From assembly GCF_024223415.1 (NCBI RefSeq), contig NZ_CP100501.1: DNA of 64,000 nucleotides; one strand, written 5' to 3'. The stretch is from Escherichia coli (lineage in GTDB: Bacteria > Pseudomonadota > Gammaproteobacteria > Enterobacterales > Enterobacteriaceae). Within the stretch, counting starts at the first letter, position 1. Each line of letters opens with the position of its first letter. This document shows, in pieces, positions 5,327-62,211 of the stretch. The notes beneath the pieces were generated by a model, which was given only the letters and a program-made list of their open reading frames with translations, did no database searches and had not been told where the DNA came from. The translations under genes were made by a program, and so were the position numbers.

Positions 5327-6400
5327 CTTCGGTTCAAGCCCCAACATCCGGGCAAACTGCCGTGTTTCATTAGCCCGGTAGCATGAACCATTATCCGTCA
5401 GCCACTCTACTGGAGACGCCGGAAGCTCGTTGCCGAAGCGGCGTTCAACCGCTCCCAGCATGACGTCCTGTACTGTTTCACTGTCGAAGCCGCCCGTAGT
5501 GACCGCCCAGTACAGTGCCTCACGGTCACAGCAGTCCAGCGCGAACGTGACTCGCAGTTTTTCTCCGTTATCACAGCGGAACTCGAACCCGTCAGAGCAC
5601 CATCGTTGATTGCTTTCTTTCACGGCCACTTTGCCAGTATGTGCCCGCTTCGATGGCGGTACAGCGGTTTTTCGCTCAAGCAACAGCGCATTCTGGCGCA
5701 TGATCCGGTAAACACGTTTGGCATTGATCGCAGGCATACCATCAAGTTCGGCCTGTCTGCGAAGCAGCGCCCATACCCGACGATAACCATACGTGGGCAG
5801 CTCTCCGATAACATGGTGTATACGGAGAAGTACATCCATATTATCGGAGTGACGGCTGCGGCGACCATCTTTCCAGTCATCGGTTCGTCTGAGAATGACG
5901 TGCAACTGCGCACGCGACACCCGGAGACAACGGCTGACTAAGCTTACTCCCCATTCCCGGGCAATAAGGGCGCGTGCGCTATCCACTTTTTTGCACGCCC
6001 ATATTCAACGGCTTCTTTAAGGAGTTCATTTTCCATCGTTTTTTTGCCGAGCAGGCGCTGGAGTTCTTTAATCTGCTTCATGGCAGCAGCAAGTTCAGAG
6101 GCAGGAACGACCTGTTCTCCTGCGGCCACAGCAGTAAGACTTCCCTCCTGGTATTGCTTGCGCCAGAGAAATAGCTGGCTGGCTGCCACACCGTGTTGCC
6201 GGGCTACAAGGGAGACCGTCATTCCCGGTTCAAAACTCTGCTGAACAATAGCGATCTTTTCCTGTGTAGTACGCCGTCTGCGTTTCTCCGGTCCTAAGAC
6301 ATCAATCATCTGCTCTCCAATGACTAGTCTAAAAACTAGTATTAAGACTATCACTTATTTAAGTGATATTGGTTGTCTGGAGATTCAGGGGGCCAGTCTA
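5327..6400 (-). mobile_element. IS2 (IS3 family), truncated copy lacking the right end
   Basis: IRL TAGACTGGCCCCCTGAATCTCCAGACAACC (reverse complement ending at 6400); insC intact, insD broken after LGLEPK by comparison with the complete copy at 30173-33953. Confidence 0.85.
5944..6354 (-). CDS. insC: IS2 InsC (OrfA)
   Basis: 136-aa HTH protein, near-identical to the insC segment of the second IS2 copy (32801-33079). Confidence 0.85.
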
Positions 6401-53033: not shown

Positions 53034-53407
53034 TGGCTGATGCGTCAAAACTTAGAACTAAAAGAACCCGTAGTGGGTTGGGGGTACCCCCGGGCCCCGA
53101 CGAAGTGGCTACCAGCTTGAATGCGCCTGAGATAGCTCCGGCTGTCGCTGCCACTGATGTTCAGAGACAACAGGCAGACTCATCGCCAGTGCACCATGAG
53201 CCTGTGGTTACGCAAACTGTGACCGAGGTATATACCCGCCGCGATGGCCGTTCTGCCAGAAAAACAAACAGGACGCTGGCATTTGCAACACGTGTCACAC
53301 CTGCTTTCGACCAAGAGATCCGGGATATCGCAGAGCGTGAGGGGTTGAAACTGGTGGAAGTTCTGGAAAAAGCAGTTGAGGCATATAAGGAAAAACAGGG
53401 CTATTAA
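53033..53407 (+). CDS. Partition centromere-binding protein (ParG/ParB-like partner of ParA)
   Basis: 124 aa, immediately downstream of and overlapping parA; basic N-terminus. Confidence 0.55.
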   Translation: MADASKLRTKRTRSGLGVPPGPDEVATSLNAPEIAPAVAATDVQRQQADSSPVHHEPVVTQTVTEVYTRRDGRSARKTNRTLAFATRVTPAFDQEIRDIAEREGLKLVEVLEKAVEAYKEKQGY

Positions 53408-53409
53408 TC

Positions 53410-53620
53410 CGGGATGCAGCAATCTTGCTGCATTCTTTTTTTGTGTGCAATCTTGCAGCAAGATTTATGCTAGATAAATGCTAGATTGCTGCAAGATAAA
53501 TGATATAATGCTCAAATTGAGTAGTTAACTGCCCCAGGTAAGTACGCAGCTTGAGTACTTACCTGTGGTTTATGAACGTATTTACTTAATGTGAGTAGTT
53601 ATTGGGTGAAGATTAATACT
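53410..53620. promoter_or_regulatory. Second repeat array (GCAATCTTGC units followed by TGAGTA-containing repeats) upstream of parM/stbA
   Basis: Direct and inverted repeats CTCAAATTGAGTA / CTTGAGTACTTAC / TGTGAGTAGTT / ACTCAAATTGAGTAT. Confidence 0.5.
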
Positions 53621-53645
53621 CAAATTGAGTATAAATGGAGATGGT

Positions 53646-54620
53646 ATGAGAATTTTTTGCGATGATGGTTCTACAAATGTGAAACTTGCCTGGTTTGAAG
53701 GCAAGACGCTGAAAAGTGCGGTATCAGTGAACTCTTTTCGCCATAACTGGAAAGTCGAGGGCTTAGGCAGCAGTCGTACCTATAACTATTTGCTTGATGG
53801 CCGTAAATATACCTACGACCCGGTCAGCGAAGATGCGATCAGCACGACTCATATTGAGTATCAGTACTCTGATACAAATGTGTTGGCAGTTCACCACGCA
53901 TTACTGAACAGTGGAATTGAACCCCAGGAGATCGATCTCACCGTTACGTTACCTATCAGCGAGTTTTACACGGCCGACTGCCAGAAAAATACGCTTAACA
54001 TTGAGAGAAAAATTCGCAACCTGATGCGGGAAGTCACCCTGAACAAAGGGGGAACTTTTACCATTAAAAGCGTTGAAGTGATGCCTGAATCACTCCCGGC
54101 TGTATTTACTCGCCTAGTTGCTGACAATGTTGGTCAGTACGAAAAATCATTGGTTATCGATCTCGGTGGTACAACTCTGGATGTCGGGGTTATTGTTGGC
54201 CAGTTTGAGGATGTTTCGGCTGTACATGGTAATCCTGATATTGGTGTATCAATGGTCACGAAAGCCACGCTCACTGCACTGAAAATGGCCAGCAGTGATA
54301 CCAGTCCAATGATTGCTGACGAGTTGATCAAAAACAGGAAGAACCTGGATTTTGTGGGGCAGGTTGTAAATGAGGTTTCTAAACTAAATCTGGTGCTGGA
54401 TACCATTGATACAGCGATAAATAAACTGGGCGAGCTAGTTGTTGATGATTTGCTGCAGTATCGAAACGTAAACCGCGTATATATTGTCGGAGGCGGGGCT
54501 GCACTCATTGCTGATGCTGTTCGTAAGGCATGGAACCACCTTGGCGAAAAGGTGGTTCTTATGGATGAACCTCAGACAGCGCTGGTCCAGGCTATTGCAC
54601 GCTTCAAAGCGGAGGAGTAA
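53646..54620 (+). CDS. stbA: Actin-like partition ATPase ParM/StbA (type II)
   Basis: N-terminal DDGSTNVK phosphate-1 motif, DLGGTTLD, YIVGGGA motifs of actin/ParM fold. Confidence 0.85.
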   Translation: MRIFCDDGSTNVKLAWFEGKTLKSAVSVNSFRHNWKVEGLGSSRTYNYLLDGRKYTYDPVSEDAISTTHIEYQYSDTNVLAVHHALLNSGIEPQEIDLTVTLPISEFYTADCQKNTLNIERKIRNLMREVTLNKGGTFTIKSVEVMPESLPAVFTRLVADNVGQYEKSLVIDLGGTTLDVGVIVGQFEDVSAVHGNPDIGVSMVTKATLTALKMASSDTSPMIADELIKNRKNLDFVGQVVNEVSKLNLVLDTIDTAINKLGELVVDDLLQYRNVNRVYIVGGGAALIADAVRKAWNHLGEKVVLMDEPQTALVQAIARFKAEE

Positions 54621-55016: not shown

Positions 55017-55672
55017 AAAAGTCTCGCTCCGTGAAACCTGCAAAATTTCTCGGGGTGTGCGGCTTAATTTTTAGATTTCCGCGTTTCCCGTCATTTGAGT
55101 CAATGGAGTGCTGGTTGACAGCTCCCTGCTCTGAAGGACGGGGATTCCCACATATGCAGCCAGATTTCCGGCTAGTGTGGTTTCAGACGTTGTTCGATTT
55201 CATTCTGTAGCGCCTGAAGTGTGCCTGATTTGAGGTTTTTTGTGCTCTGGCGGTCGAAAAGAATTTCAATGCGGATCATGTTCTCATCTCCCTTTTATTT
55301 TACTGTGTATATATACAGTATTCTAATAACTGAATCCACACACAGTCAAATGTCATTGTTGTGACTAAAAAACGCTCAATTCTCTGAGAGTGTGGCTGTA
55401 TGCCTGCTGTGGACTGCTGTGTCCAGCTTATCCACAGCATTTTGTGCACGGTTCTGTGGACAAAATACCTGGTTACCCAGGCCGTGCCGGCACGTTAACC
55501 GGGCTGCATCCGATGCAAGTGTGTCGCTGTCGCCGGCCTTCTCACCCGGTCACGTTTCGTCGTTCCTCCTCCACGAGCTGCGGCTTCGGGGCCGCACCTG
55601 CATTCGTATGCGGTCGCCCGGTTACAGGTGCGGCACGGCCTGATGGAGGCCGCATGTGAGAGGAGAATTCCC

Positions 55673-56599
55673 ATGCCAAACTGGTGCTCAAATCGTATGT
55701 ATTTTTCTGGTGAACCGGCACAGATTGCTGAGATTAAACGACTGGCCAGCGGTGCAGTCACACCGTTTTATCGCCGCGCCACAAATGAAGGTATTCAGCT
55801 GTTTCTGGCCGGAAGTGCCGGACTTCTGCAGACCACTGAAGATGTGCGGTTTGAACCATGTCCCGGACTGACGGCTGCCGGACGTGGCGTTGTATCGCCG
55901 GAGAATATCGCGTTCACCCGCTGGCTGACATACCTGCAGGACGGTGTACTGCTGGATGAGCAAAACTGCCTGATGCTGCATGAACTCTGGCTGCAGAGCG
56001 GTACTGGACAGCGTCGCTGGGAAGGATTACCGGACGATGTCAGGGATACCATCACCGCACTTTTCACCGCAAAAAGAGGTGACTGGTGTGGCTTCTGGAG
56101 TAACGAAGATGTATCGGTGTGGTGGAACCGTCTGTGTGACAACGTACTGCCGGAAAAAACCATGCCGTTTGACCTGCTGACGGTTCTGCCCACCCGCCTG
56201 GATGTTGAAGTGAATGGCTTTAACGGTGGTGTTCTGAACGGTGTTCCTTCTGCATATCACTGGTATACGGAACGGTATGGCGTGAAGTGGCCTGTGGGGT
56301 ATGAGGTGAATATCAGTAATCAGGGAGACAACTTCATTAAGGTGGATTTCGACACGCCGTGGTGTCAGCCGGAAAGCGACGTTATTGCAGAATTAAGCCG
56401 CCGTTTCAGCTGCACGCTGGAGCACTGGTATGCCGAACAGGGCTGTGATTTCTGTGGCTGGCAGTTGTATGAGCGCGGAGAGCTCGTTGATGTGCTGTGG
56501 GGGGAACTGGAATGGTCTTCCCCGACAGATGACGATGAGCTGCCGGAAGTCACCGGACCTGCGTGGATAGTCGACAATGTGGCGCATTATGGCGGATGA
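55673..56599 (+). CDS. Leading-region hypothetical protein (308 aa)
   Basis: GAGGAG RBS; Cys/Trp-rich; no confident family assignment. Confidence 0.55.
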   Translation: MPNWCSNRMYFSGEPAQIAEIKRLASGAVTPFYRRATNEGIQLFLAGSAGLLQTTEDVRFEPCPGLTAAGRGVVSPENIAFTRWLTYLQDGVLLDEQNCLMLHELWLQSGTGQRRWEGLPDDVRDTITALFTAKRGDWCGFWSNEDVSVWWNRLCDNVLPEKTMPFDLLTVLPTRLDVEVNGFNGGVLNGVPSAYHWYTERYGVKWPVGYEVNISNQGDNFIKVDFDTPWCQPESDVIAELSRRFSCTLEHWYAEQGCDFCGWQLYERGELVDVLWGELEWSSPTDDDELPEVTGPAWIVDNVAHYGG

Positions 56600-56981
56600 A
56601 GTATGACGGAGACGGGCGGGCAACTGCCCGTTTCTTTTCCGGTAAAGGATGTCGCCATGCTCCTCTTTTTACTGCGCCGGCTGACGCGGCGCGGCATAAA
56701 CGCTGCCTGTGGTCAGTGTCCCGCGTCCGGTGGGCACGGGACGGGCGCTTTTACCGCTCCCGGCTGGCGTCGGTGACAGTGTACGCCAGCCTGTCGCCCT
56801 TTTCTGATGAACGCCCTTCAAGCCGCTTTCGCGGCATAACCTTGCCGTCAAACAGACGACGGCTGCGGTATTCCACGGTCGGCCTGACCCGTTACCGGAC
56901 GCGGTGAACAGCCCACAGGCAGCGGGGAACGGGCACCACAGGGGTGCCCTCCCGGTGCCCCCTGTAAGAGAAGGAGCTGTT

Positions 56982-57665
56982 ATGTCCCGTTTTATCCTGG
57001 GTGACTGCGTGCGTGTTATGGCCACGATTCCTGATAACGCCATTGATTTCATATTAACCGATCCGCCATATCTCGTCGGTTTCCGTGACCGTTCCGGGCG
57101 CACCATTGCCGGTGACGTTAATGATGACTGGCTGCAACCGGCCTGTAATGAGATGTACCGCGTACTCAAAAAAGACGCGCTGATGGTCAGCTTCTACGGC
57201 TGGCACCGTATTGACCGCTTTATGGCGGCCTGGAAACGCGCCGGATTCAGCGTGGTTGGCCACCTGGTCTTCACCAAAAACTACACATCCAAATCTGCGT
57301 ATGTCGCGTACCGCCACGAATGCGCTTACATCCTGGCAAAGGGCAGTCCGGCCCGGCCCCGTAACCCGCTGCCGGATGTGCTGGGCTGGAAATATTCGGG
57401 CAACCGCCATCACCCGACGGAAAAGCCCGTTACCAGCCTGCAACCGCTGATTGAGAGCTTCACACATCCGAACGCGATTGTGCTGGATCCGTTTGCAGGC
57501 AGCGGTTCAACCTGCGTGGCCGCCCTTCAGTCCGGACGCCGGTATATCGGTATCGAGCTGCTTGAACAGTATCACCGTGCCGGACAGCAACGACTGGCCG
57601 CCGTGCAACGGGCCATGCAGCAGGGGGCCGCGAATGATAACTGGTTTATGCCGGAGGCTGCGTAA
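56982..57665 (+). CDS. Orphan N6-adenine DNA methyltransferase
   Basis: DPPY catalytic motif (ILTDPPYLVGF) and FxGxG AdoMet motif (LDPFAGSGST); AAGGAG RBS; no adjacent restriction enzyme gene. Confidence 0.85.
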   Translation: MSRFILGDCVRVMATIPDNAIDFILTDPPYLVGFRDRSGRTIAGDVNDDWLQPACNEMYRVLKKDALMVSFYGWHRIDRFMAAWKRAGFSVVGHLVFTKNYTSKSAYVAYRHECAYILAKGSPARPRNPLPDVLGWKYSGNRHHPTEKPVTSLQPLIESFTHPNAIVLDPFAGSGSTCVAALQSGRRYIGIELLEQYHRAGQQRLAAVQRAMQQGAANDNWFMPEAA

Positions 57666-57887
57666 ATGAACTATGCCGGACACGAAAAACTTCGCGCCGA
57701 CGTGGCGGAGGTGGCCAATGCCATGTGCGACCTGCGTACAACCATGAATGAGATGGAGCGGCGGTACAGCTTTAATGCTGACACCCTGCCGGAACGTCTG
57801 GTGCGTCAGACGTTGTTTCGCGCAAACCGCCTCCTGATGGAGGCATATACCGAAATTCTGGAACTGGATTCCTGCTTCAAAGATTGA
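57666..57887 (+). CDS. Hypothetical small protein (73 aa)
   Basis: ORF starting directly after the methyltransferase stop. Confidence 0.45.
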   Translation: MNYAGHEKLRADVAEVANAMCDLRTTMNEMERRYSFNADTLPERLVRQTLFRANRLLMEAYTEILELDSCFKD

Positions 57888-57900
57888 GAAGGAGACGAGA

Positions 57901-58335
57901 ATGTACGGAACATGCGAAACGCTATGCCGGGCGCTGGCAGCAAAGTATCCGGGAGATACGCCGCTGATGCTGGTTATCTGGTCCCCGGAAGAAATTCAGG
58001 CCCTCGCTGACGGAATGGATATTTCCCTGTCCGATCATGAAATCAGGACTGTCCTGGCGCGGCTGGCGGACATCCCGGAAGACCAGCGGACTGAGTCCGG
58101 TATTTCTTCCGGCGTGGCGATGGAGATTATCAGCAACGTGAGCGAAAACCGCCAGGTGACCGTCCCGGCTGAACTGCTGGCGTCCCTGATTCAGACCGCC
58201 GAACAGGCACTGTGGAAACGTGAATGGGCCGCCCGTGATTACGGCCTCGCCGTCCCGGAATGCGTCACCCGCCGTCAGGCGGTGGTTAATCAGGCCCGCA
58301 TCCTGCTGAAAAACAACCCACACGAAAACGACTGA
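57901..58335 (+). CDS. Leading-region protein, paralog of 60037-60456 (DUF1380-like)
   Basis: Shared motifs with 60037-60456 (..LSD.E..TV..RL.D.. and ..VTVPA.LL..). Confidence 0.6.
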   Translation: MYGTCETLCRALAAKYPGDTPLMLVIWSPEEIQALADGMDISLSDHEIRTVLARLADIPEDQRTESGISSGVAMEIISNVSENRQVTVPAELLASLIQTAEQALWKREWAARDYGLAVPECVTRRQAVVNQARILLKNNPHEND

Positions 58336-58379
58336 TGTTATCGCCGCCTTCGGGCGGCGATTCAGGGAGACCATGAATC

Positions 58380-59150
58380 ATGAACAAAACGCTGAATGCA
58401 CTGGTTTGTCACCACGCCCGTAACCTGCTGCTGGCGCAGGGCTGGCCGGAAGAGACGGATGTTGACCAGCGTAACCCGAAGTATCCGGGCTGGATCAGCA
58501 TTTATGTTCTGCTGGATGCGCCCCGGCTGGCGACGTTACTTATCAACCGTCACGGCGGCGTACTGCCGCCGCTCCTGGCCTCCGCCATTCACAAACTGAC
58601 CGGAACCGGGGCGGAAGTTGTACTGTCCGGCAGTCAGTGGCAGTCGCTGCCGGTACTTCCGGCAGACGGAACGCAGGTGTCTTTCCCGTATGCCGGAGAA
58701 TGGCTGACCGAAGACGAAATCAGGGCAGTTCTTGATGCAGTGCGCGATGCGGTACGCAGTGTCAGTTGCCGGGTGACAGAAGATGCGCGGCGTATCAGGG
58801 CGGCGCTGACCACAACCGGTCAGACGTTGCTGACCCGCCAGACGCGGCGCTTTCGCCTGGTTGTGAAGGAAAGCGATCACCCCTGCTGGCTCGATGAAGA
58901 CGACGAAAACCTGCCCGTGGTGCTCGATGCCATCCTGAACCGGGGCGCTCGTTTTTCTTCGGTGGAAATGTATCTGGTCAGTGAGTGTGTGGAGCATATC
59001 CTGTCCAGTGGGCTGGCCTGCGATGTGCTGCGTATACCGGATGAACCGCCCCGCCGGTGGTTTGACCGTGGTGTTCTGCGGGAGGTGGTCCGGGAAGCCC
59101 GGGCCGAAATCCGCAGCATGGCGGATGCCCTGGCAAAAATCCGGAAATGA
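58380..59150 (+). CDS. Leading-region hypothetical protein (256 aa)
   Basis: ORF with RBS; preceded by hairpin TCGCCGCC-TTCG-GGCGGCGA. Confidence 0.5.
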
Positions 59151-59564
59151 TGACGCTGGCGGGGAAAAATCTCCGCCTTTTCCAGCCGGTCCCCGGAAAG
59201 AGCAAAAGGATGTCGCCGCAGGCTCCGCTTTACTCGGCCATGCGGGGCATGGCCTTGTGGGTTTTCAGTTATGTGGCCTCAGCGTCGTGTGCGGGCTGTG
59301 CCGTGCCTCCATCGTAGCCGGGCTTCTGCGGGCGGGTTGCAAGGTAAGGTGAACCGCTGCGGTCACCCGGTCCCTCCTTCCCGTCTGCCGTGATTTTCCG
59401 GTCGTTCACCCGCTCAGATTTCGCGGTCTCACCCTCCAACTCCCGCCAGCCGTGTGCGTCAGGCTGCGGCTTCCCTTGCGCCCTTGCAACCCTGCAGGCC
59501 CGGCAAAGATGGAGGCACGGCACCGCCCGGTGTCGCGGAATATGTGAACAACGGAGGAAATCCC

Positions 59565-59990
59565 ATGCAGTATGCGAAACCTGTCACCCTGAACGTTGAA
59601 GAGTGCGACCGCCTTTCTTTTCTGCCTTACCTGTTTGGCAACGATTTTCTGTATGCCGAGGCGTATGTGTACGCGCTGGCGCAAAAAATGATGCCGGAAT
59701 ATCAGGGAGGCTTCTGGCATTTCATCCGCCTGCCGGACGGTGGCGGTTACATGATGCCGGATGGCGACCGTTTTCATCTGGTCAACGGTGAAAACTGGTT
59801 TGACCGCACTGTGAGTGCTGATGCCGCAGGCATCATTGTTACGTCTCTTGTGATTAACCGCCAGTTGTGGCTGTACCACGACAGCGGGGATGCGGGACTG
59901 ACACACCTGTACCGGATGCGTGATGCGCAGTTGTGGCGTCACATCGAATTTCACCCCGAATGCAACGCGATTTACGCGGCACTGGACTGA
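59565..59990 (+). CDS. klcA: Antirestriction protein KlcA/ArdB family
   Basis: Similarity to remembered KlcA (..GG.W.F...NGG.YM.PD.D..WHL.NG.N....S..AAGI..) ; GGAGGA RBS. Confidence 0.8.
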   Translation: MQYAKPVTLNVEECDRLSFLPYLFGNDFLYAEAYVYALAQKMMPEYQGGFWHFIRLPDGGGYMMPDGDRFHLVNGENWFDRTVSADAAGIIVTSLVINRQLWLYHDSGDAGLTHLYRMRDAQLWRHIEFHPECNAIYAALD

Positions 59991-60036
59991 TTAACGGACG
60001 GGGCGGCAATGCCGCCCCTGTAAAGGAGACGAGAAC

Positions 60037-60456
60037 ATGTACTGTACTGTTAAAGAAATTATCCGCGAAGTGCTGAATACAGACGTGCCGGACAGTGAAT
60101 GTGTTTTTGCCGTGGTGCTGACCCGCGGGGATGTGCGCCACATAGCCCGGGACTGGAACCTGTCAGACGATGAGCTGGAAACCGTCATGCAGCGGCTGGA
60201 CGATGCTTTTGTATATGGCGCATGTGACAGAGTTGTTTCCGATATTGTCAATGAACTGATGGAGGAAAAGCGCGTAAACCGTCTTGTAACAGTTCCTGCG
60301 GTGCTGCTGGAAAAAGTGATGGTGATGGCTGGTAGTGAAATTTATCGCCTCCATGCTGTAGGGAGCGAGAACGGGGGCGACGGTGACGCATTTGTCAGGG
60401 AAGAACGTGAGATTATGCGGGTAATGCGTCAGGCGCTGGACGGGGAGAACGGGTAA
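60037..60456 (+). CDS. Leading-region protein, paralog of 57901-58335 (DUF1380-like)
   Basis: See 57901-58335. Confidence 0.6.
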   Translation: MYCTVKEIIREVLNTDVPDSECVFAVVLTRGDVRHIARDWNLSDDELETVMQRLDDAFVYGACDRVVSDIVNELMEEKRVNRLVTVPAVLLEKVMVMAGSEIYRLHAVGSENGGDGDAFVREEREIMRVMRQALDGENG

Positions 60457-60647
60457 TGAATATCAGCACGGAAACCCGCGAAATTCTGCGTAATTACAGG
60501 GCCGTGATTAATGCGCGGCGTCGTGAAATGGGGCAGAAACCGCTCACCACCGCGCAGATTGTTGATGAAATCTGTGATTTTGTGGCGAATCAGCAGGCGG
60601 TTTTCCTCGGTGGTCACTATATCCTTCAGGGCAGCAGGCACAGGTGA
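60456..60647 (+). CDS. Hypothetical small protein (63 aa)
   Basis: ORF overlapping the previous stop (ATGA). Confidence 0.4.
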   Translation: MNISTETREILRNYRAVINARRREMGQKPLTTAQIVDEICDFVANQQAVFLGGHYILQGSRHR

Positions 60648-60649
60648 TA

Positions 60650-61390
60650 CAGGGGCAGGCGGTGGAGGCCGCCTGTCAGCCCGCGCGAAAACCCCTGGCA
60701 GGCTGGCGCCTGCCGGAAGGGATGCGGGCCACGCTGGCGCGTCGCCCGTTACCCTTCCTGTTGGTGACAGGCGTTGTTTCAGGAAGTACCTGTTACAGAC
60801 CTGTCGTTAAAGAACCTTCTTACACATGCGCCCCTTCGGCTCCCGGCTGCCTGGCGGCATCCGGTCGTCAGGCCCGACTCCGACAGGCAGCTGCTGGCGC
60901 ACCCGCCAGTCTCCGCCGAACCCGCTGGCGCGGTTTCGGGCTGTCGCTACGGTCCGATGCGTGAAAACCCGGGCTTGCAGCGACCGTTCCGGTCGCGCCG
61001 CCTCTGTCGCGCCGTGACCTGCGCTCCCTGCACACCTGACGGTGTGTGAGGAAACTGCGCCTGATGGCGCAGCAGTCCTCCCTCCTGCCGCCACCTCTGC
61101 GGCCTGTTTCCCGCTGTGGACTTTCCGGGGGGCAGACGTAACCCCCTCCCGTTCCATCTGTCCAGGGTGAGATGCACCGGCCACAAAATTTTTAGCCATG
61201 AACCCGGCAAAAAATTTTGCGTCCGCCCCCGGACAGCTGCCCCGTGAGGCGGTAAACGGGCCCCCATCGGAAAGGTCCACTGCGGGGAGAAACCCCTGTG
61301 AAGTGGACGGCAGGAGGAGCTTTCGCTCCTCTGAAGGGGCACATGAACGTCCCGTCGCCGGTATCCGGTTTATCTCACATCTTTCAGTCA
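60650..61390 (+). promoter_or_regulatory. GC-rich structured non-coding region upstream of ssb (candidate ssi/Frpo-type single-strand promoter)
   Basis: About 740 bp without a credible ORF, many inverted repeats, directly 5' of plasmid ssb as in IncF leading regions. Confidence 0.45.
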
Positions 61391-61400
61391 GGAGGTTCTT

Positions 61401-61922
61401 ATGAGTGCACGTGGTATCAACAAGGTCATCCTCGTCGGGCGTCTGGGCAATGATCCGGAAGTCTGTTACATCCCCAACGGGGGCGCAGTGGCAAACCTGC
61501 AGGTCGCCACGTCAGAAAGCTGGCGCGACAAACAGACGGGGGAGATGCGGGAGCAGACGGAATGGCACCGCGTGGTGCTGTTCGGCAAGCTCGCGGAAGT
61601 GGCTGGTGAATATCTGCGCAAGGGCGCGCAGGTCTACATCGAGGGGCAACTCCGTACCCGTAGCTGGGAGGATAACGGTATCACCCGTTACGTCACTGAA
61701 ATTCTTGTTAAGACCACGGGCACCATGCAGATGCTGGGGAGTGCACCACAGCAGAACGCTCAGGCGCAACCGAAGCCTCAGCAGAATGGGCAGCCACAGA
61801 GTGCTGACGCGACGAAAAAAGGTGGCGCGAAAACGAAAGGCCGTGGACGTAAGGCCGCGCAGCCGGAGCCTCAGCAGCCGTCTGAACCCGCGTATGACTT
61901 CGATGACGACATTCCGTTCTAA
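61401..61922 (+). CDS. ssb: Plasmid single-stranded DNA-binding protein
   Basis: OB-fold N-terminus ([14 protein letters not shown]..), Gln/Pro-rich linker, acidic tail [17 protein letters not shown]. Confidence 0.95.
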
Positions 61923-61977
61923 CGAAAGACAGTGACAACCGCCCCGTCCAGTGCGGGGCATCACCGGAGAGATGAGG

Positions 61978-62211
61978 ATGAGCGAATATTTCAGAATACT
62001 TCAGGGACTGCCTGACGGTCCTTTTACCCGCAAACATGCCGAAGCCGTTGCCGCACAGTACCGGAATGTCTTTATCGAGGATGATCAGGGAACGCATTTT
62101 CGCCTGGTTGTCCGCAATAACAGTGGCCTGGTCTGGCGTACCTGGAATTTTGAGGACGGTGCCGGGTACTGGATGAACCATGCCATCCGTGATTTCGGCA
62201 TTCTTAAGTAA
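61978..62211 (+). CDS. Hypothetical small protein downstream of ssb
   Basis: 77 aa starting MSEYFRILQ; conserved position between ssb and ParB-like gene. Confidence 0.5.

Follow-up and report, generated by a model that had tools for sequence, protein, structure and literature searches.

Organisation of a conserved plasmid leading region in Escherichia coli and candidate roles of its seven uncharacterized ORFs

Leading regions of F, pESBL and related elements

The closest described systems are the leading regions of F and of the IncI1 plasmid pESBL. Six pESBL operons show induction of up to ~500-fold in transconjugants, with transcription start sites located at intergenic hairpins (class 3 mapped by 5' RACE), and the methyltransferase (MTase) and klcA operons of F are induced too (PMC12672017). 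The F hairpin ssp2 acts as a promoter and, in addition, as a UvrD-resolved roadblock to complementary-strand synthesis (PMC12672017; bioRxiv 10.64898/2026.01.09.698686); without ssp2, transfer of F into non-isogenic strains is lower, 36-fold with EcoGIII and 5-fold with EcoKI (bioRxiv 10.64898/2026.01.09.698686). Without Frpo2, transfer of F between K-12 strains is unchanged, and YfjA, the F orthologue of the DUF905 protein listed below, is expressed from Frpo2 for a short time in transconjugants, as seen with YfjA-sfGFP (PMC9849209). The MTase M.EcoGIX of pESBL guards against EcoGIII and EcoRI, up to ~1000-fold (PMC4288162), and its target is the single strand as it enters the recipient (PMC7736820). 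In Suppl. Table 1 of Samuel et al. 2024 (PMC11541004), the 'uncharacterized' families at the top for enrichment in leading regions include #2 (DUF905), #6, #7 (DUF1380), #10 (YchA), #11, #14 and #27 (DUF1281).

The analysed window comprised 64,000 nt of E. coli contig NZ_CP100501.1 (GCF_024223415.1). Its positions 55673-62211 represent an island that is already known, the leading region found very widely on conjugative E. coli plasmids of the F and IncI types. The original prediction, which had placed anti-restriction and establishment genes of a leading region here with uncharacterized ORFs between them, had thus recognised the locus correctly. A probability of about 75% was assigned to the explanation as a whole, namely that the segment makes up the oriT-distal half of a leading region conserved between IncF and IncI-complex plasmids, organised in ssDNA-promoter units and serving establishment. 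The region was 100% identical in pGF60-A, was matched by at least 5000 plasmid records and, among 5426 complete E. coli genomes, by 4039; the best PLSDB match of the backbone was IncK2/Z, MOBP, MPF_I.

Gene order was as in F, with protein identities of 77-98%. The arrangements ssp3-yfeA...yffB, ssp2-yfgB... and Frpo2-ssb-yfjA-yfjB-psiB were shared in order and orientation, all three ssDNA promoter classes of F were homologous to those here (88-95%), and oriT and traM of F are positioned downstream, along the direction of transcription. Unlike in F, where the DUF1281 copy is frameshifted, the gene is intact here; the IncK2/Z-like backbone also differs, and divergence from F is mosaic (e.g. 77% identity for the 73-aa ORF vs 94% for DUF1380 paralog a). 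Gene order likewise followed pESBL (protein identity 80-97%), in one-to-one correspondence with Hp8, M.EcoGIX, Hp9-Hp11, KlcA/ArdB, Hp12-Hp13, Ssb and Hp14 and with intergenic promoter regions 88-98% identical, but the left neighbour is impCAB in pESBL and a ParA/ParM/StbB partition block here. As in the anti-defence islands defined by Samuel et al. 2024, T-strand-templated genes follow Frpo-type promoters, and MTase, SSB, KlcA and Psi genes are mixed with enriched uncharacterized families. A partial resemblance was also seen to CP4-6 of E. coli K-12, in which DUF905 (YkfF) adjoins the KlcA-like YafX near the DUF932 protein YafZ, and to CP4-57, in which a KlcA-like protein and DUF932 are present and DUF905 is absent; both elements, unlike the island, are chromosomal and lack MTase, DUF1380, YchA and SSB.

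Genes and intergenic hairpins of the island

All seven predicted ORFs were found on the plus strand, co-oriented with the MTase, KlcA/ArdB, SSB and ParB-like genes. The features are as follows.

55471-55645, minus strand (transferred/template strand): class-2-like ssDNA hairpin, 27 nt upstream of the DUF1281 start (covariance model)
55673-56599, plus strand: DUF1281/Api92-like protein, 308 aa counted from the ATG, pI 4.4, net charge -23 (Pfam; pESBL Hp8; Samuel family #27, YubB/YfdA names)
56697-56924, minus strand: putative class 3 ssDNA promoter hairpin (ssp3 of F) upstream of the MTase operon (homology and fold)
56982-57665, plus strand: orphan adenine MTase, orthologue of the ssDNA-specific M.EcoGIX (F YfeA; NCBIfam PRK13699, 489 bits)
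57666-57887, plus strand: 73-aa protein (pESBL Hp9; Samuel family #11; phrog_4830, unknown function)
57901-58335, plus strand: DUF1380 paralog a, 144 aa, acidic (pESBL Hp10; Samuel family #7, YcgB/YubF; Pfam DUF1380 1.3e-50)
58380-59150, plus strand: YchA/YubG/NgrC-family protein, 256 aa, last gene of the MTase operon (F yffB; pESBL Hp11; Samuel family #10)
59290-59531, minus strand: putative class 2 ssDNA promoter hairpin (ssp2 of F) upstream of klcA (homology, fold, covariance model)
59565-59990, plus strand: KlcA/ArdB anti-restriction protein (F YfgB; PDB 2KMG E=1.9e-18, 2WJ9 E=1.7e-8)
60037-60456, plus strand: DUF1380 paralog b, 139 aa, net charge -12 (BLASTP to paralog a; pESBL Hp12; Samuel family #14, YcgC/YubJ)
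60456-60647, plus strand: 63-aa basic protein, pI 9.8, start overlapping the paralog b stop by 1 nt (pESBL Hp13)
60833-61331, minus strand: putative class 1 ssDNA promoter (Frpo2/ssi family) upstream of ssb, core hairpin ~61081-61317
[quoted passage not shown]
61978-62211, plus strand: DUF905/YkfF-like protein, 77 aa (F YfjA/YubL; pESBL Hp14; Samuel family #2; Pfam DUF905 6.5e-31; PDB 2HJJ E=2.6e-21)
~62275-64000, plus strand: ParB-like gene (F YfjB = HerB), cut by the window end (annotated in RefSeq for p1106 and for the 100%-identical pGF60-A)

Gene identity, synteny, selection and the homology and structure of the hairpins were read directly from the window and its relatives. In every intergenic gap, folding was much stronger than in shuffled controls (z -5.2 to -9.5), strong structure was nearly confined to these gaps in a sliding scan, and each gap was homologous to its F/pESBL counterpart (class 3 98%, class 2 88%, class 1 91%). 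By homology to the elements mapped in pESBL and F, three operons would stand under ssDNA-promoter hairpins: class 3 upstream of the M.EcoGIX-type MTase, the 73-aa ORF, DUF1380a and YchA/YffB; class 2 upstream of KlcA/ArdB, DUF1380b and the 63-aa ORF; and class 1/Frpo upstream of SSB, DUF905 and the ParB-like HerB, continuing to psiB past the window end. Ahead of the DUF1281 gene lies a fourth, shorter class-2-like hairpin. The minus strand of the window would be the strand transferred in conjugation and the template for all these genes; on it, the long intergenic hairpins are expected to rebuild promoter duplexes, and transcription of the incoming single strand in the recipient would therefore precede complementary-strand synthesis and end when the DNA becomes double-stranded. 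The seven ORF products, soluble and mostly acidic, would be made briefly in the new transconjugant. Such early transcription, and the functions of MTase and KlcA, are presumed here from experiments on near-identical F/pESBL elements.

For the MTase operon, the intergenic region 56600-56981 was 98% identical to the pESBL region upstream of M.EcoGIX and 95% to F, with a minus-strand fold of -105 kcal/mol (z=-5.8). The MTase itself was 95.6% identical to M.EcoGIX of pESBL and 91.6% to F, and no endonuclease gene was found near 56982-57665. Its stop directly abuts the start of the 73-aa ORF (TAA-ATG, zero spacer), which gave no match in the Pfam release searched or in PDB (dN/dS 0.13-0.28); in newer precomputed Pfam labels, PF27407 lies on gene calls fusing this ORF to DUF1380. 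DUF1380 paralog a belongs to a family of 513 clusters, found only on enterobacterial plasmids, and its AF2 model was poor (pLDDT 65) and all-helical (dN/dS 0.20-0.41). The YchA/YffB model was confident (pLDDT 91), and a structural search with it returned no informative relative. Even YchA homologues of 25-31% identity keep a place immediately before KlcA or ArdA in other leading regions, and each is preceded by a class-2-like hairpin of its own.

The class 2 hairpin upstream of klcA was 88% identical to F ssp2 and to the pESBL element upstream of klcA, and 87% to that upstream of ardA in pESBL (dG -76 kcal/mol; 196 bits with covariance model R1). KlcA/ArdB shared 97.9% identity with its F counterpart and 97.2% with that of pESBL. 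The predicted paralogy of 57901-58335 and 60037-60456 was confirmed by BLASTP (29% identity, E=3e-8), both being DUF1380, although paralog b scored only 0.1 in Pfam, vs 1.3e-50 for paralog a (phrog_9024 2.2e-4; dN/dS 0.26-0.32). The 63-aa protein is probably Samuel family #6, 'plasmid protein' (199 clusters, without Pfam label), and its dN/dS of 0.06-0.09 was the lowest range among the seven ORFs. In the ssb operon, the class 1 element was 91% identical to pESBL upstream of ssb, with two further copies in pESBL, and matched both Frpo copies of F; the 753-nt gap holding it folded at -225 kcal/mol (z=-9.5).

The DUF1281 protein (Pfam DUF1281 3.5e-48, DUF1281_C 3.5e-14; PDB 2IJR E=8e-51) was 95.8% identical to pESBL Hp8, and its start at 55673 is supported because the 2IJR alignment begins at residue 3. 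Its dN/dS was 0.13-0.23 in informative comparisons and 0.69 against a 99%-identical copy. The gene lies outside the six induced operons named for pESBL (PMC12672017). Using a covariance model trained solely on class-2 elements upstream of klcA, ardA, YchA-like genes and a 156-aa ORF, its upstream hairpin was matched at full length on the minus strand (66.2 bits, E=1.5e-14; plus strand 25 bits). The class-2 invariant blocks were present together with a 37-pair hairpin with 16 compensatory pairs; the fold (dG -50.5 kcal/mol) was weaker than that of other hairpins (about -71 to -79), with z=-5.7 for the intergenic region. On these sequence features the element is a candidate fourth ssDNA promoter, and no naming of it was found in the literature consulted.

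Candidate roles of the seven ORFs

That the ORFs lack a recognisable function, as had been predicted, held in so far as none of NCBIfam, PADLOC, PHROGs, Pfam and PDB gave a functional match; it did not hold for family membership, since Pfam places four of them in DUF families (DUF1281 with DUF1281_C, DUF1380 twice, DUF905) and homologues of two, themselves without a known function, have solved structures (api92 2IJR, YkfF 2HJJ). The proposed comparison with catalogues and structures showed none of the seven to resemble a known anti-defence protein by sequence or profile or, for YchA, by fold. Likewise, DIAMOND/Foldseek gave no match to anti-CRISPR structures in any of the seven families, and anti-restriction matches inside families #10 and #14 were few, 10 ArdA and about 31 ArdB (Samuel et al. 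2024, PMC11541004); these look like mis-clustered neighbouring genes.

Most likely, the seven ORFs assist plasmid establishment in foreign hosts. The likeliest role of the five that would be co-transcribed with MTase or KlcA is that of accessory factors or extra inhibitors in the escape from restriction or related DNA-targeting defences, and an anti-defence role is plausible for all seven. The tight or overlapping junctions MTase/73-aa ORF and DUF1380b/63-aa ORF count in favour of the explanation as a whole. Anti-defence candidacy is reasonable, yet it is an already published hypothesis (Samuel et al. 2024, PMC11541004). Transposon insertions in pESBL Hp8-Hp14 left maintenance and transfer to E. 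coli K-12 unaffected (PMC4288162 Table 2), which fits a role only in defended or foreign hosts and equally fits non-defence roles. The neighbouring 'unknown' solved so far, YfjB/HerB, acts on host transcription, an observation that runs against anti-defence; it reprograms the host, blocks no defence system and offsets the acquisition cost (PMC13370423).

A tentative alternative is that the seven proteins are establishment factors whose targets are the host or the processing of plasmid DNA and not defence systems, possibly by tuning ss-to-ds conversion (PolI, UvrD, primosome partners), damping stress responses or rewiring the host. It would place DUF905 with HerB, its partner in the Frpo2 operon, and agrees with the link of M.EcoGIX activity to DNA polymerase I (PMC7736820), with the UvrD-dependent timing of conversion through which ssp2 acts, with SSB and PsiB of the region targeting ssDNA and SOS instead of defence nucleases, and with the dispensability of the ORFs in K-12 to K-12 matings (PMC4288162, PMC9849209). 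It accounts less well for the placement of five of the seven ORFs specifically in the operons of two anti-restriction genes, for YchA-like genes remaining beside KlcA or ArdA even at 25-31% identity, and for the statistical enrichment of anti-defence genes in leading regions.

More doubtful is that the ORFs are accessory subunits or regulators of their known neighbours without an independent target; the 73-aa protein could act with the MTase, and DUF1380b or the 63-aa protein with KlcA. The zero-spacer and 1-nt-overlap couplings and the occurrence of one DUF1380 paralog in each of the two anti-restriction operons would suit such pairing. Serfiotis-Mitsa et al. are said to have found in 2010 that KlcA and ArdB are active in vivo and not in vitro, a pattern compatible with the absence of a partner. 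Against this, the 73-aa and 63-aa proteins proved unrelated when compared, two loci (L010 and L012) have KlcA, ArdA and YchA-like genes without DUF1380 or small ORFs, and M.EcoGIX, cloned alone, methylates in vivo (PMC7736820).

That the seven are chance or decaying frames in a recombination-prone region is very improbable: spurious ORFs on the hairpins are likewise called by RefSeq and the DUF1281 copy of F is frameshifted, but dN/dS was 0.06-0.41 for all seven (vs F, p1106 and two other plasmids), indicating purifying selection, against 0.84-5.2, where computable, for RefSeq-called ORFs on the hairpins, so that the seven are genes and not chance ORFs; conserved clusters of each family number in the hundreds, YchA gave a confident model, structures have been solved for two of the families, and transconjugants produce YfjA-sfGFP. 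Non-functionality was refuted by this conservation pattern.

Gene content and family assignment

Seven ORFs of no recognisable function had been predicted between a DNA methyltransferase (MTase), KlcA, SSB and a ParB-like gene. All of them were present in the ORF list, every one on the plus strand, and the four known neighbours were borne out by family searches and by the annotation of identical DNA. The features are as follows.

55673-56599, +, DUF1281 protein
56982-57665, +, DNA methyltransferase (NCBIfam PRK13699, 489 bits)
57666-57887, +, 73-aa protein
57901-58335, +, DUF1380 protein (DUF1380a)
58380-59150, +, 256-aa YchA/YffB protein
59565-59990, +, KlcA/ArdB (PDB 2KMG, E = 1.9e-18; ArdB 2WJ9, E = 1.7e-8)
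60037-60456, +, divergent DUF1380 protein (DUF1380b)
60456-60647, +, 63-aa protein
61401-61922, +, plasmid SSB (PRK13732, 367 bits)
61978-62211, +, DUF905 protein
from ~62275, past the window end, +, ParB-like gene (annotation of identical DNA)

All seven ORFs are genes; dN/dS was 0.06-0.41 across the set in comparisons with F, the related plasmid p1106 and two further plasmids. RefSeq additionally carries two "hypothetical protein" calls over hairpins in the related plasmid pGF60-A, in pESBL (the plasmid of E. coli O104:H4) and in F, one on the class 3 hairpin (56563-56907) and one on the structured gap directly upstream of the class 1 element (60644-60964). For these, dN/dS was 0.84-5.2 where computable, and at values of ~0.8-5 they are almost certainly not genes.

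Pfam was run on a concatenate of the seven ORFs, and DUF families were the sole matches. ORF 55673-56599 matched DUF1281 (3.5e-48, N-terminal) and DUF1281_C (3.5e-14, C-terminal ferredoxin-like), and aligned over residues 3-274 with api92 (PDB 2IJR, a solved structure of unknown function; E = 8e-51). Since this alignment begins at residue 3, the start at 55673 was preferred over the RefSeq start at 55697. ORF 57901-58335 was assigned to DUF1380 (PF07128, 1.3e-50). The predicted paralogy of two ORFs was recovered between this one and 60037-60456 (29% identity, E = 3e-8); the latter reached DUF1380 in Pfam just at E = 0.1 and phrog_9024 at 2.2e-4, and it was classed on these three values as a divergent DUF1380 member. 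ORF 61978-62211 matched DUF905 (UPF0401, 6.5e-31) and the NMR structure of E. coli YkfF (PDB 2HJJ, 2.6e-21). The 73-aa, 256-aa and 63-aa proteins had no Pfam family in the release searched and no PDB relative, and PDB sequence and profile searches returned nothing for DUF1380, YchA or the 73-aa and 63-aa proteins. The last two were also compared with each other and rejected as relatives, there being no similarity.

The MTase was 95.6% identical over 227 aa to M.EcoGIX of pESBL, an ssDNA-specific SAY m6A methyltransferase that guards the entering strand (PMC7736820) and protects up to ~1000-fold against EcoGIII or EcoRI (PMC4288162). No cognate endonuclease was found, the adjacent genes in the ORF list and the pGF60-A annotation not being nucleases, and the enzyme is predicted to be an M.EcoGIX-type ssDNA-specific adenine methyltransferase, orthologous and without cognate endonuclease. 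Its TAA stop abuts the ATG of the 73-aa ORF, and the DUF1380b stop and the 63-aa start share one base. By predicted properties, all seven ORF products are soluble; the 63-aa protein is basic, and the acidic ones include DUF1281 (net charge -23) and both DUF1380 proteins (-8 and -12).

YchA/YffB is a narrow family: at 50% identity it makes up 183 clusters out of 1.84 billion representatives, every one either ~255-270 aa long or a fragment, and fusions were absent. The AlphaFold model from a 16-sequence alignment (pLDDT 91.1, pTM 0.84) predicts a long helix linking two alpha+beta modules. A fold search with this model returned YchA/NgrC/YubG proteins of Enterobacterales alone in AFDB50 and nothing significant in BFVD. 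In other islands that resemble leading regions, homologues at 25-31% identity immediately precede KlcA or ArdA, and a pol III theta homologue, DUF1281 and DUF905 are found near them; from this adjacency, the link between YchA and anti-restriction genes is family-wide and independent of the MTase. In F, the 256-aa gene is named yffB (the site of the primer "yffB up F" from the literature falls within it), KlcA is yfgB (bioRxiv 10.64898/2026.01.09.698686) and the DUF905 gene is yfjA (PMC9849209). An echo of the plasmid leading-region gene set was seen in the CP4-6 element of E. coli K-12, where the DUF905 protein YkfF adjoins the KlcA-like YafX with DUF932 close by. YpjJ of CP4-57 was rejected as a DUF905 member, as it belongs to DUF987.

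DUF1380 was confined to enterobacterial plasmids. The AF2 model (19 sequences, two subfamilies) was poor (pLDDT 65, pTM 0.38) and was not taken to a fold search. A contig scan for distant relatives yielded six near-identical copies alone, several of them in obviously contaminated MAG contigs, and added no diversity or context.

Predicted operons and ssDNA promoter hairpins

In F, the homologous block is directed toward oriT and traM, ~8-13 kb downstream; the window itself does not include oriT, and in pGF60-A and p1106 psiB, psiA and ardA come next in the same direction. Going by F, the window genes would thus be directed toward oriT, and the minus strand of the window would be the one that is transferred and serves as template. 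Structure of the gaps was scored as ssDNA folding against shuffled sequence (z-score).

55017-55672, gap upstream of DUF1281, folding z -5.7
56600-56981, gap upstream of the MTase, folding z -5.8
59151-59564, gap upstream of klcA, folding z -5.2
60648-61400, gap upstream of ssb, folding z -9.5

A sliding scan of 52.4-63.9 kb found strong structure nearly limited to these four gaps. Every gap had a homologous counterpart in F and in pESBL. The gap upstream of the MTase was 98% identical to its pESBL counterpart; that upstream of klcA was 88% identical to its pESBL counterpart and 87% to the one preceding ardA in pESBL; that upstream of ssb was 91% identical to pESBL, with two further pESBL copies and matches to both F Frpo copies. 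On this similarity the three gaps correspond to the class 3, class 2 (ssp2) and class 1 (Frpo) ssDNA promoters of Wen et al. (PMC12672017), respectively. In that study, six operons were up by at most ~500-fold in fresh pESBL transconjugants, with start sites mapped by 5' RACE, and the MTase and klcA operons of F were likewise induced. YfjA (DUF905) is made transiently in transconjugants from Frpo2 (PMC9849209). By homology to pESBL and F, six of the seven ORFs would therefore lie in three zygotically induced operons. None of the gaps showed a canonical -35/-10 pair when scanned with the sigma-70 consensus, so the promoters were assigned by homology to the mapped elements and not by promoter boxes; Rfam returned no family within 52-64 kb.

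Three further structured stretches were noted. The first ~390 nt of the ssb-upstream gap (60648-61040), outside the core Frpo hairpin, were strongly structured (z -6 to -7) and were repeated just in part at the other pESBL class 1 copies. The gap upstream of parM (53360-53760) was strongly structured as ssDNA and by inverted repeats, with z as low as -8.3, and probably represents the parC-type centromere/promoter that serves ParM partition. Within the ParB-like CDS, 240-nt windows of the minus strand at 62960-63360 showed unusually strong folding (z -4.1 to -6.2); inverted repeats of at least 12 nt were looked for and not found, and there was no Rfam match.

The gap before DUF1281 contains a 175-nt hairpin (55471-55645, minus strand) that ends 27 nt before the gene. 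It aligned with the class 2 elements of the window, F and pESBL, and with hairpins before DUF1281, YchA-like, KlcA, ArdA and a 156-aa ORF at two distant loci. Blocks common to these class-2-like hairpins were GCCGTGCC, GAAGCCGCAGC, GA(A/C)CGGGTGA, CTTGC, GCCCGG(C/T)TAnnnT and GGCACGG. The consensus hairpin had 37 pairs, with compensatory changes in 16; 94% of its cells were paired (82% in shuffles) and the covariation score was 0.303 (0.109 in shuffles), neither value being reached in any of 500 shuffles, and slid controls stayed at or below 0.064. A covariance model built without any DUF1281-upstream sequence found the hairpin at full length with 66.2 bits (E = 1.5e-14; opposite strand 25 bits) and the klcA class 2 element with 196 bits, these being its only two matches in the 64-kb window; the same DUF1281-upstream element was found in F, pESBL, p1106 and L010, a distant leading-region-like contig. 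We read 55471-55645 as a structural homologue, of reduced length, of class 2 ssDNA promoters (ssp2 type) on the transferred strand.

The hairpin lacks the ~70-nt central insert and is weaker, at -50.5 kcal/mol versus -76 for the klcA element and -71 to -79 for mapped promoters. It thereby falls short of the threshold of < -75 kcal/mol used for ssDNA promoter mining by Wen et al. (PMC12672017), which may be why it does not appear in their list. Nor is Hp8, the pESBL orthologue of the DUF1281 protein, mentioned in the available text of that paper among the six induced operons. The hairpin is listed here as a candidate ssDNA promoter, on structural homology, beyond the six named for pESBL in the text available.

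At L010 2803-6361 and at 3392-5513 of L012, a second such contig, DUF1281, YchA-like, KlcA, ArdA and the 156-aa ORF each stood behind their own class-2-like hairpin. This layout suggests that cassettes of one hairpin promoter and a single ORF are the unit shuffled between plasmids; were the DUF1281 hairpin functional, such cassettes would be the modular unit exchanged between leading regions. The L012 match at 5327-5513 falls where an ArdA gene call of 236 aa begins, and the N-terminus of this call is probably extended too far.

Possible anti-defence role of the seven families

The original prediction proposed the seven ORFs as candidates for new anti-defence genes. This is a published hypothesis, as Samuel et al. 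(PMC11541004) already argue that such families are likely anti-defence genes. The families are among the largest leading-region-enriched ones in their Supplementary Table 1, where they are labelled uncharacterized: DUF905/YubL (no. 2), "plasmid protein" (no. 6), DUF1380 YcgB/YubF (no. 7), YchA/YubG (no. 10), YfcA (no. 11), YcgC/YubJ (no. 14) and DUF1281 (no. 27). That table gives an anti-CRISPR match for none of the seven; the few ArdA/ArdB matches, to 10 members of family no. 10 and ~31 of no. 14, look like mis-clustered neighbours. In pESBL the orthologues are Hp8, Hp9, Hp10, Hp11 (YchA), Hp12, Hp13 and Hp14 (Yamaichi et al., PMC4288162, Table 2), and TnSeq covering maintenance and transfer into K-12 recipients only scored Hp8-Hp13 as "non-essential" at 1.00 and Hp14 at 0.95 (PMC4288162).

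No characterised anti-defence family was found for the seven ORFs in NCBIfam, PHROGs, Pfam or PDB, in which the matches were to DUF or unknown-function families alone; PADLOC, a defence-system catalogue, predicted none of them as a defence component, and the fold search with the YchA/YffB model showed no likeness to a known anti-defence protein. Across all ten proteins, NCBIfam, PADLOC and PHROGs returned known genes and phage families of unknown function, and nothing else. An anti-defence role is plausible on circumstantial grounds, because of the predicted co-transcription with two anti-restriction genes, the conserved adjacency, the early expression and the dispensability in undefended matings. 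Non-defence roles are realistic as well, given the precedent of the ParB-like YfjB of F, which is HerB, a reprogrammer of host transcription (PMC13370423). The reading that one or more of the seven act as an anti-defence factor of a new kind, with the smaller claim that the DUF1281 hairpin is a functional, so far unlisted ssDNA promoter, was given a probability of about 0.3.

Among the seven, the DUF1380b/63-aa pair is the best lead. To our knowledge, KlcA/ArdB is active solely against type I systems; protection against the type II system EcoGIII may therefore be supplied by DUF1380b or the 63-aa protein, and not by KlcA. Such protection of F depends 36-fold on transcription from ssp2, the driver of klcA-DUF1380b-63aa, since without ssp2 F is transferred less well into non-isogenic hosts, by 36-fold with EcoGIII and by 5-fold with EcoKI; ssp2, which lies upstream of yfgB, doubles as a roadblock to complementary-strand synthesis that UvrD resolves (Fraikin et al., bioRxiv 10.64898/2026.01.09.698686).

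Distribution and synteny

The gene order of both F and pESBL is identical to that of the window (in F: MTase, 73 aa, DUF1380, 258 aa, antirestriction, DUF1380, 63 aa, ssb, DUF905, ParB-like, psiB), with protein identities of 77-98% overall and 80-97% for pESBL. Judged by this synteny, the island belongs to the conserved leading region of IncF/IncI plasmids. The PHROG matches do not point to a phage origin: the one match in the phage collection was a 1.9-kb unannotated record and no real copy of the island.

In PLSDB, at least 5000 plasmids matched at 90-95%, and in at least 2054 of these the match covered 80% or more of the query, the best among the matches listed being an IncK2/Z, MOBP, MPF_I plasmid; 4039 of 5426 complete E. 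coli genomes had a match. The region is thus an ordinary, extremely common copy of an already known system, and what it contributes is not new gene content but a tidier list of parts and, before DUF1281, one further candidate ssDNA promoter. Thousands of plasmids with resistance or virulence genes in E. coli, Klebsiella and Salmonella carry these families, which come on within the first minutes of plasmid arrival in a new cell; their roles, already pursued by several groups, could explain how plasmids cross strain barriers.

Divergence from F was mosaic across 55673-62211 (identity 77% for the 73-aa ORF, 82% for DUF1380b, 94% for DUF1380a and 98% for KlcA), which suggests that leading regions often recombine with one another. 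Over the 9 kb around the island, the sequence was 100% identical to pGF60-A, a plasmid of E. coli from Swiss chicken meat, the sole difference being a group II intron (ltrA) in pGF60-A at the 5' end of ssb, at about codon 13 (uninterrupted in the window at 61401-61440). Group II introns or IS elements were also present in this region of several related plasmids.
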